From: Eledone cirrhosa
Lineage: Eukaryota
Direction: 5' to 3'
Length of the DNA stretch: 64,000 bases
Assembly (NCBI GenBank): GCA_964016885.1
Contig: OZ024741.1
Span: 173,786,001 to 173,850,000, forward strand
How positions within the stretch are numbered: the first letter of the stretch is position 1; the number at the start of each line of letters is the position of its first letter. Shown here piece by piece: positions 38,490-39,872 of the stretch. Both the position numbers and the translations under genes were made by a program. The notes beneath the pieces were generated by a model, which saw nothing but the letters and a program-made list of their open reading frames with translations, was not told the DNA's origin and did no database searches.

Positions 38490-38491
<2 letters not shown>

Positions 38492-39867
38492 TATGAAGAG
38501 AGAAGAAACATTTAGATATAATTAGTAATAAAATGTATCATACCTAAACTGTTCCTAAATTCCTCGACTACGTAGTTTCGTGGCATAAACAAAAACAATA
38601 TATCAAAGATATAGAGTCCTTGCGAGGTCTGCCGACTTATCAAGAGGATACCTCATTTTACTAGTCTCAAGAACGCGTCTACACGACGTGAGAAAGAATC
38701 CCAAAAGGCGGAGGGGGAGATAGTCACGCGATATAACGGTCGAGAAACAGAGCTAAGCCTCTTATAACCACGAAGAAAATACCACGGAGGCGGAGGGGGT
38801 ATTCATATCGAGGCCGTAGAAGAGGTAGTGAAGAAGACGAGAAGTATGAGTAATGGAAGCTTTCCAGTTGTCCCCACACTTCAAAGATTGCTCGACCAGA
38901 GGGAGTTATTAATATATTAAGAAACACACAGATACATGCGGACACACACATATATACATGAATGCATCCGCACCCAACTGTCAGTTAAGGGTGCCAACTT
39001 CACCGATGTTGCTCAATGAATGACTGGGACAGACCAATTCAGTTTGAACCAGACTGAACCAGTATCAGAGTTAAAAATACATTATGAAGAGAGAAGAAAC
39101 ATTTAGATATAATTAGTAATAAAATGTATCATACCTAAACTGTTCCTAAATTCCTCGACTACGTAGTTTCGTGGCATAAACAAAAACAATATATCAAAGA
39201 TATAGAGTCCTTGCGAGGTCTGCCGACTTATCAAGAGGATACCTCATTTTACTAGTCTCAAGAACGCGTCTACACGACGTGAGAAAGAATCCCAAAAGGC
39301 GGAGGGGGAGATAGTCACGCGATATAACGGTCGAGAAACAGAGCTAAGCCTCTTATAACCACGAAGAAAATACCACGGAGGCGGAGGGGGTATTCATATC
39401 GAGGCCGTAGAAGAGGTAGTGAAGAAGACGAGAAGTATGAGTAATGGAAGCTTTCCAGTTGTCCCCACACTTCAAAGATTGCTCGACCAGAGGGAGTTAT
39501 TAATATATTAAGAAACACACAGATACATGCGGACACACACATATATACATGAATGCATCCGCACCCAACTGTCAGTTAAGGGTGCCAACTTCACCGATGT
39601 TGCTCAATGAATGACTGGGACAGACCAATTCAGTTTGAACCAGACTGAACCAGTATCAGAGTTAAAAATACATTATGAAGAGAGAAGAAACATTTAGATA
39701 TAATTAGTAATAAAATGTATCATACCTAAACTGTTCCTAAATTCCTCGACTACGTAGTTTCGTGGCATAAACAAAAACAATATATCAAAGATATAGAGTC
39801 CTTGCGAGGTCTGCCGACTTATCAAGAGGATACCTCATTTTACTAGTCTCAAGAACGCGTCTACACG

Positions 39868-39872
<5 letters not shown>
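38490..39872 (-). mobile_element. Family I non-autonomous HHR element: 591-bp tandem unit x2.3
   Basis: attatgaagagagaag at 38490, 39081 and 39672; units appear identical; TA tracts on both sides. Confidence 0.93.
38561..38648 (-). ncRNA. Hammerhead ribozyme, U3-A8 core variant, family I
   Basis: Minus strand: tcctc TTGATAA gt-c-ggca...tgcc-ac GAAA ctacgtag TC gagga; repeats at 39152-39239 and 39743-39830. Confidence 0.85.

Follow-up and report, generated by a model that had tools for sequence, protein, structure and literature searches.

A dispersed 591-bp repeat family with a predicted U3-A8 hammerhead, inserted in (TA)n microsatellites of the Eledone cirrhosa genome

A 64,000-nt stretch of the Eledone cirrhosa genome (assembly GCA_964016885.1, contig OZ024741.1, positions 173,786,001 to 173,850,000 of the forward strand), called the window below, contains a head-to-tail array of a 591-bp unit placed between two (TA)n microsatellites, and the minus strand of each unit carries a hammerhead-like motif (Table 1). 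The array comprises 2.34 units, and 792 of the 792 positions compared at a period of 591 across 38490-39873 were identical (100% identity), which agrees with the 2.3 apparently identical units of the original prediction, made from the letters of the sequence. The exact periodicity stopped right at the (TA)n tracts on either side. The array constitutes a single-arm insertion beginning at unit position 1 and finishing at unit position 202. Two variants, A348 and C493, were present in units 1 and 2 and absent from the other full units (32 full units were compared), being private to this array. It was not reported by Tandem Repeats Finder because the longest period of the program was 500. The unit has 41% G+C and its longest open run encompasses 86 codons, indicating non-coding DNA. 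A reading frame running through the whole unit (591 = 3 x 197) was ruled out by 7-15 stops per unit in every frame, and no transposase or Rep reading frame was present in the unit.

Table 1. Features of the 591-bp array, its hammerhead motif and other hammerhead motifs, in window coordinates
Feature	Position	Strand	Remarks
Whole array	38490..39873	-	2.34 head-to-tail units of 591 bp; C2:173824490-173825873
(TA)n microsatellite, left flank	38407..38491		target DNA; Tandem Repeats Finder row and sequence
(TA)n microsatellite, right flank	39873..40791		Tandem Repeats Finder row
Unit 1, complete	38490..39080	-	
Unit 2, complete	39081..39671	-	same as unit 1 (periodic identity)
Unit 3, partial	39672..39873	-	unit positions 1-202; variable end, 5' in the RNA sense, directly abuts (TA)n
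Start site 1 of putative reverse transcription	38486..38499	-	junction (TA)n/ATTATGAAGAG
Start site 2, internal copy (unit ~418-423)	38905..38920	-	TTATTAATATATTAAG; outer end of 12 of 31 arms elsewhere, not an end in the window
Hammerhead motif copy 1, with 5-bp helix I	38561..38648	-	descriptor scan; U3 at 38643, C17 at 38566; predicted cleavage 38566/38565
Hammerhead motif copy 2	39152..39239	-	descriptor scan and folding; U3 at 39234, C17 at 39157; predicted cleavage 39157/39156
Hammerhead motif copy 3	39743..39830	-	descriptor scan; U3 at 39825, C17 at 39748; predicted cleavage 39748/39747
Copy 2, helix I	39239-39235 (5' strand); 39156-39152 (3' strand)	-	
Copy 2, core U3-A9	39234-39228	-	
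Copy 2, helix II	39227-39171	-	
Copy 2, G12-A14	39170-39168	-	
Copy 2, helix III	39167-39158	-	followed by C17 at 39157
Canonical hammerheads of other window families	967-1037	-	
	1704-1774	+	
	9755-9830	-	
	20926, 21395, 28226, 28695	+	
	32561-32615	-	
	53366-53436	-	
	54588-54637	-	
J-like motifs	321-390		
	56177-56211	-	
	56288-56322	+	

The descriptor scan revealed in all three copies of the minus-strand motif the string UCCUC-UUGAUAA-(57 nt)-GAAA-CUACGUAG-UC-GAGGA, and thereby the predicted stem I (tcctc/gagga), UUGAUAA core, 57-nt stem II, palindrome and GUC were confirmed. The core boxes N3-U-G-A-N-N8-A9, G12-A-A, A15.1...U16.1 and H17 of the hammerhead are represented by UUGAUAA, GAAA, A...U and C17, respectively; three helices surround the core, the G10.1-C11.1 pair is present and helix I is open. 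All conserved core letters are canonical except those at positions 3 and 8, where U3 and A8 stand instead of C3 and G8 and the Watson-Crick pair is kept. Helix I consists of 5 bp, helix II is built of G-C, U-A, a bulged C, GGCA/UGCC and a distal hairpin, and helix III is the palindrome ACUACGUAGU. In its predicted fold (z = -3.93), helix II has an internal loop between a basal stem and a distal hairpin. The core was intact in 92 of the 92 copies of the unit across loci L001-L030. The motif is assigned to hammerhead-type three-way junctions, with a pairing-preserving U3-A8 swap as its sole departure in the core. Indirect support for this assignment comes from an architecture in common with neighbouring canonical-core families, a strict descriptor without a match in 300 shuffles, the unusual stability of the minus-strand RNA only and U3-A8 in a second, unrelated family, all described below.

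Repeat families of the window were found by masked self-BLAST, and at least six others contained canonical CUGAUGA or CUGACGA type I hammerheads, compared with 0.017 expected per window. Most of these hammerheads were located within tandem or inverted arrays between (TA)n tracts and none of them was called by Rfam at the gathering score. Families A (+1704/-1037), B (-53436) and D (-9830) had canonical cores, a helix II of 50-54 nt and a palindromic helix III of 10-11 nt. When helix II of these three families and of the 591-bp family was folded alone, a large internal loop separated a basal stem from a distal hairpin in each case. A strict descriptor was derived from families A, B and D (helix II of 45-60 nt; helix III of 10-11 nt and no fewer than 4 pairs; helix I of 4 bp or more). 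In the window it detected four C-G sites, three U-A sites, all of them in the 591-bp array, and no site with non-pairing positions 3 and 8, whereas 300 dinucleotide shuffles gave 0, 0 and 0.013 such sites per window, respectively. A further canonical-core family (loci L063-L065) with a two-tier helix II of 49-51 nt gave three matches versus none in controls. Between the three diverged copies of this family, helix III (ACCAAGGU, ACCAUGGU and ACUAUUGU) and the distal hairpin vary, which makes it a candidate for the analysis of covariation. When hammerheads with a long helix II were aligned with MAFFT, helix III did not come into register, and no covariance model was derived. The 200 kb directly downstream of the window (C2:173850001-174050000, L043-L062), scanned with the same descriptor, contained no hammerhead motif, so the window appears as a local hot spot of hammerhead insertions.

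Contigs from runs X2-X5, which bear another organism label, provided variants of the unit, with 40 of 74 variable sites listed. None of the 40 listed sites fell in the 45 nt made up of helix I, the core, helix III and the helix II base (P ~0.04 by our arithmetic), and three substitutions and one insertion were located in the interior of helix II. Of the five helix II substitutions found in X2-X5 and in the E. cirrhosa genome itself, four kept the pair, all of them being transitions at G-U or A-U pairs.

The 591-nt RNA of the minus strand was predicted to be strongly structured (-171.2 kcal/mol versus -138.8 +/- 7.1 kcal/mol for shuffled sequences, z = -4.56, with none of 100 shuffles as good), and the plus-strand RNA was ordinary in this respect (z = 0.03).

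A genome search with the 591-bp unit (genome of ~3.0 Gb; 40 of 227 first-look candidates were scored) identified, among the scored candidates, 136 matching segments at ~37 places on 14 contigs with 98-100% identity. Among named proteins, the best match to this genome was one of Octopus vulgaris, with 72% identity. A duplication confined to a single locus, named by the original prediction as the result that would speak against it, is excluded by this distribution. Twenty of the places were fetched and 31 arms were analysed in them. The places comprised 11 inverted pairs and 9 single arms, with arm lengths from 0.18 to 4.16 units, and at all 20 the outer ends adjoined (TA)n or TA-rich DNA. The outer ends were fixed, at unit position 1 in 19 of the 31 arms and at 418-423 in the remaining 12. 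The inner ends were scattered over 31 values, none of which coincided with the predicted cleavage site 76/77. At the first site the junction in the 19 arms reads ...TATAC/ATTATG, i.e., ...TATAC/ATTATGAAG, and the copy in the window lacks the C; at the second one it reads (TA)n/TATATTAAGAAAC. Both start sites permit a few bases of TA microhomology.

In all 11 inverted pairs, whose fixed ends face outward, one arm began at site 1 and the other at site 420. A free choice of site would give such a result with a probability of ~3e-4 according to our arithmetic. Eight of the nine single arms, the window array being one of the nine, began at site 1. The arrays at other loci had been expected to begin at permuted positions; instead two fixed starts (unit 1 in 19 arms, 418-423 in 12) and scattered ends were observed. 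Such a combination is characteristic of target-primed reverse transcription that begins at internal sites, and not of random linearisation of a circle. The fixed outward ends are 3' ends only if the RNA corresponds to the minus strand, so the minus strand is the sense strand of the presumed RNA, in line with the strand of the hammerhead motif. The same outward 3'-end rule was true of family A and of the neighbouring 469-bp family, for which the sense was set by canonical hammerheads.

Private variants were found in all units of the insertion carrying them: C129T (C4:4.15 Mb), C130G (C3:335 Mb), A42C (C9:31.75 Mb) and the A348/C493 combination of the window array. For C129T and A42C, the variant was also present in both arms of the insertion. 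Variants common to all units and arms indicate that each insertion was copied from one template sequence. The original prediction had taken the identity of the units as a sign of recent copying from a multimeric or circular template, and the data support young copies made off a repeated or circular template.

The 591-bp unit and both of its (TA)n junctions were present in contigs of independent runs (three organism labels, three studies). In runs X2-X4, which come from one sample, loose (TA)n ends were detected at 39077 (the site-1 junction) and 38912 (site 2). The summed word depth of these runs on 38900-39490 was 1e5 to 6e5, a quantity not readable as copy number or expression. Contigs of 621 and 620 nt (the unit plus 30) in runs X1 and X6 fit a cyclic word path, and a tandem DNA repeat gives the same. 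The run contigs mapped to the unit showed neither the start nor the end of any molecule, and none of their joints was informative. Runs X2-X4 also held hundreds of variant contigs, some matching only 39152-39249, i.e., the hammerhead module, at ~80-85% inside otherwise unlike contigs.

The window and the genome also contain a resident Penelope-like element (PLE), encoding a reverse transcriptase (RT). A truncated RT frame (P0001) was identified at 10829-13132 on the minus strand of the window and belongs to a PLE family very abundant in the genome; of the 74,796 first-look candidates returned by the search with query P0002, 56 were scored. Many frames of ~1217 aa were open and lay in ~4.1-kb units arranged in tandem and in inverted pairs, inserted in (TA)n (loci L031-L042). 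The 3' junctions of the element with (TA)n occurred at several alternative TA-microhomology points and a 45-65-nt tail was present. The C-terminus of the protein reads as a Cys cluster with a GIY...YIG motif behind it. The intact 1215-aa frame had no match in Pfam or in PDB sequences, Pfam gave only a weak RVT_1 match on relatives, and the nearest Atlas clusters, which serve as a lead only, carry RVT_1 and GIY-YIG. In the 3' untranslated region of the PLE, a minimal hammerhead-like core, CUGACGA-U-GUUGCA GAUG UGCAAC-GAAA, was found.

PLE hallmarks include partial tandem copies with an inverted 5'-truncated copy next to them, a tail confined to one end and microsatellite targets (PMC8557442). 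A purified PLE protein extends both DNA strands and begins reverse transcription at two internal RNA sites (PMC11167929), and (TA)n is the insertion preference of cephalopod Naiad and Hydra families (PMC8557442 supplement). The 591-bp family displayed the corresponding features, namely partial tandems with an inverted truncated copy, a one-end tail with two RT starts and a microsatellite target. The pairing rule observed in 11 of 11 inverted pairs agrees with the one-ended PLE tail (PMC8557442) as well as with RT starting at two sites and extending both strands (PMC11167929), and the TA-microhomology junctions of the family and of the resident PLE are alike. Three 14-nt strings taken from the window hammerheads did not occur in the PMC8557442 supplement. 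By eye, GAAAC was noticed ~29 nt upstream of CUGAUGA in Naiad_Ovul, and CUGAUGA, 48 nt and GAAA in the sequence printed just before Naiad_Adux; both are unlike the 591-bp motif in sequence.

Among the motifs accepted with descriptors or by eye, C3-G8 was present in seven families, U3-A8 in two or three, and non-pairing positions 3 and 8 in none. The second family with U3-A8, designated J, is a 233-nt, (TA)n-inserted repeat (L065:2368-2600 and loci L066-L095; 1431 first-look candidates), many copies of which form inverted twin arms. All 55 copies examined carried the full U3-A8 motif CCUU-UUGAAAA-GCAG...CUGC-GAAA-CCGG-UA-AAGG. This hammerhead is compact (UUGAAAA, a 13-nt helix II, ACCGGU, GUA) and unrelated to the 591-bp family, and it has helix I and the helix III ends in common with the canonical hammerhead D of the window. 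A J-related palindromic twin-arm family is located in the window (313-611; 55999-56491) and combines UUGAAAA with a helix II of 5 bp and CCGGUC/A as helix III. Its copies read GCAA, not GAAA, in the second core box (C at core position 13), and the family may represent a decayed or deviant hammerhead. It is possibly the "family G" to which the original prediction ascribed the same compensatory core. U3-A8 versions of the hammerhead keep activity in some contexts. The U3-A8 core is not new, since Schistosoma PLE hammerheads have been described with "U3-A8 instead of C3-G8" (PMC4209133).

On the whole, the array is one insertion of a young dispersed non-coding 591-bp family, likely copied into (TA)n by the reverse transcriptase and endonuclease of a PLE from multimeric or circular minus-strand RNA, with the predicted U3-A8 hammerhead cutting this RNA to unit length. 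In the proposed course of events, the PLE endonuclease would cut both strands of (TA)n and each 3' end would pair over a few bases with a UA-rich RNA site. The annealed end could then prime cDNA synthesis running past one unit, and the joining of two cDNAs would leave a single arm or an inverted pair. The predicted hammerhead, probably dimeric via the palindromic helix III, would process multimers to 591-nt monomers, which a cellular RNA ligase may circularise as in animal retrozymes.

Several observations weigh against this reading. A loose U3-A8 descriptor gave 0.22 matches per shuffled window, so such a match alone is weak. The 111-nt motif region alone was not stabler than its shuffles (z = -0.98), helix II is weak at its base (2 bp and 4 bp on either side of a bulged C) and helix III has only 3-4 bp intramolecularly. 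The palindrome could nevertheless give 10 bp between two copies, by analogy with other animal hammerheads acting as dimers (PMC4209133, PMC7229834). Rfam gave no match in the whole window at the gathering score, and its hammerhead models gave none on the array at E up to 10. For the neighbouring 469-bp family, whose hammerhead is plainly canonical, the score (Hammerhead_HH9, 31.8 bits, E = 1.5e-4) also fell below gathering, showing that the Rfam models are insensitive to such forms. That strict CUGANGA searches would miss the motif, as had been foreseen, holds true, and the same applies to these models. The best of the weak microRNA-like matches, mir-268 (27.3 bits, gathering 47), fell on a hairpin just 3' of the predicted cleavage site and was treated as chance. 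PLE hammerheads assayed by others cleaved poorly in vitro (PMC4209133). A blastn comparison of the unit with 12 loci of one PLE family returned only low-complexity matches, and the partnership with the PLE is therefore drawn from shared insertion behaviour only. Finally, the data fit a circular template and a long multimeric transcript alike.

Some of these points serve another explanation, in which the family is mobilised by the PLE and the hammerhead-like motif is an inactive relic or irrelevant, the multimers arising from read-through transcripts of parent arrays or from RT template jumping. It would account for the missing Rfam match, the weak helix II base and helix III, and the poor in vitro cleavage of PLE hammerheads (PMC4209133), and it is in keeping with the proliferation of Naiad PLEs without canonical hammerheads (PMC8557442). 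The lack of inner ends at 76/77 also fits it, although this argues only that cleaved linear monomers were not templates. An inactive motif is harder to reconcile with the core preserved in every copy at L001-L030 and with the listed X2-X5 variants, which avoid the essential 45 nt. Moreover, U3 and A8 were changed together, not singly, also in a second family (J), and the minus-strand RNA is strongly structured; this explanation was judged unlikely. A rolling-circle DNA transposon (Helitron-like), or extrachromosomal circular DNA reintegrating at TA dinucleotides, would also produce head-to-tail multimers in a TA-rich target. One fixed and one variable end per arm, inverted pairs with the tail at one end, two alternative starts with TA microhomology and the lack of a transposase or Rep reading frame speak against it, as does the identical behaviour of the junctions of the RT-encoding PLE, and such an origin seems very improbable. 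Least credible of all is that the array is an ordinary satellite, arose locally through tandem duplication (unequal crossing-over or slippage during replication) or is an artefact of assembly. Units with 100% identity in a microsatellite-rich, hard-to-assemble region might raise this suspicion, but the same end positions recurred at ~37 places on 14 contigs, and the unit with both (TA)n junctions was recovered in independent runs of three organism labels and three studies.

The preferred reading, insertion of the 591-bp family by a PLE from multimeric or circular RNA, can be carried further, tentatively and with more doubt than confidence. The two-tier helix II of 50-57 nt, found in at least five unrelated families, might define an unmodelled type I subclass of cephalopod PLE-dependent retrozymes. 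The arrays might then be rolling cDNAs of a 591-nt circular RNA, with the two ends of a single cut (TA)n site each priming at one of two UA-rich sites that are neighbours in one RNA molecule.

Other repeats were noticed in the window. A short element at 38217-38406 (related to 53007-53309) is located in the array's own (TA)n tract and ends in a near-perfect 116-nt palindrome (38294-38409). Elements of this type were also observed beside 591-bp arrays in L020, L025 and L026 and look like a twin-arm insertion of another family. The segments 14716-21826 and 21722-29127 form a tandem segmental duplication of ~7.3 kb with 97-99% identity, within which lie the 469-bp hammerhead array and minus-strand RVT_1 frames (16256-17215 and 23327-24880). 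A 1.56-kb inverted repeat (43132-44690 and 48542-50107, 99.5% identity) flanks ~3.9 kb and encloses a minus-strand frame of 545 aa (46890-48527) for which Pfam gave no match.

With this family, a cephalopod genome joins those of animals carrying hammerhead-bearing non-autonomous retroelements; our literature searches turned up no paper on such elements in octopods. The 591-bp insertions constitute an unusually clean genomic record of PLE integration, with two TA-microhomology starts, one of each per inverted pair, and a single template for both arms. Searches demanding CUGANGA and a short helix II, as well as Rfam models, overlook an entire group of hammerheads in this genome. Were cleavage and circles to be confirmed, the family would offer a 591-nt natural scaffold for ribozyme-made circular RNA and a tractable substrate for in vitro studies of PLEs. 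Should the doubtful rolling-cDNA extension hold as well, TA microsatellites would be self-renewing landing pads for ribozyme circles.

The 591-bp family is best filed with animal retrozymes and PLE passengers, and the principles involved are already known. Noteworthy in it are the unit size, the two-tier 57-nt helix II, U3-A8, the two fixed TA-microhomology starts and the fact that each arm of an inverted pair has a start of its own. Animal non-LTR (long terminal repeat) retrozymes, thought to spread via small RNA intermediates, likewise form tandem repeats that are dispersed, low in GC and non-coding, each unit bearing a type I hammerhead whose helix III is short and palindromic (PMC7229834). 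In comparison with the descriptions in that source, the unit is larger (591 bp versus about 150-450 bp), which places it outside their size range, and helix II is longer (57 nt versus ~4 bp and a loop). The U3-A8 core and the strict (TA)n insertion from two fixed starts also set it apart (PMC7229834). The minimal hammerheads of the Schistosoma Cercyon PLEs resemble the present motif in the U3-A8 covariation, the PLE association, the large helix II, the short helix I and the palindromic helix III positions suggesting action as a dimer (PMC4209133). The Cercyon forms, located in the pseudo-LTRs (pLTRs) of autonomous PLEs, combine a 7-8-bp helix II with a minimal or absent helix III, whereas here a 10-nt helix III and a 57-nt two-tier helix II occur in a non-autonomous carrier (PMC4209133).

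Endonuclease-containing (EN+) PLEs have in common with the 591-bp family the partial tandems, the inverted 5'-truncated copy, the one-end tail and the two internal RT starts (PMC8557442, PMC11167929). The family differs from the elements described there in having no reading frame and in the length of the "tail" (169 nt versus 30-40 nt). For vertebrate retrozymes, it has likewise been proposed that tandem hammerhead repeats are non-autonomous riders of PLEs (bioRxiv 10.64898/2026.07.22.740005). That proposal rests on the relatedness of pLTRs and retrozymes in vertebrates, and the present one on insertion signatures in an invertebrate, with no sequence relatedness found to the one PLE family compared. 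Plant LTR retrozymes are similarly non-autonomous and hammerhead-bearing, with RNAs of similar size (600-1000 nt). Their type III hammerheads located in LTRs, primer-binding site and polypurine tract, 4-bp target duplications and LTR-retrotransposon machinery have no counterpart in the 591-bp family (PMC4918200).

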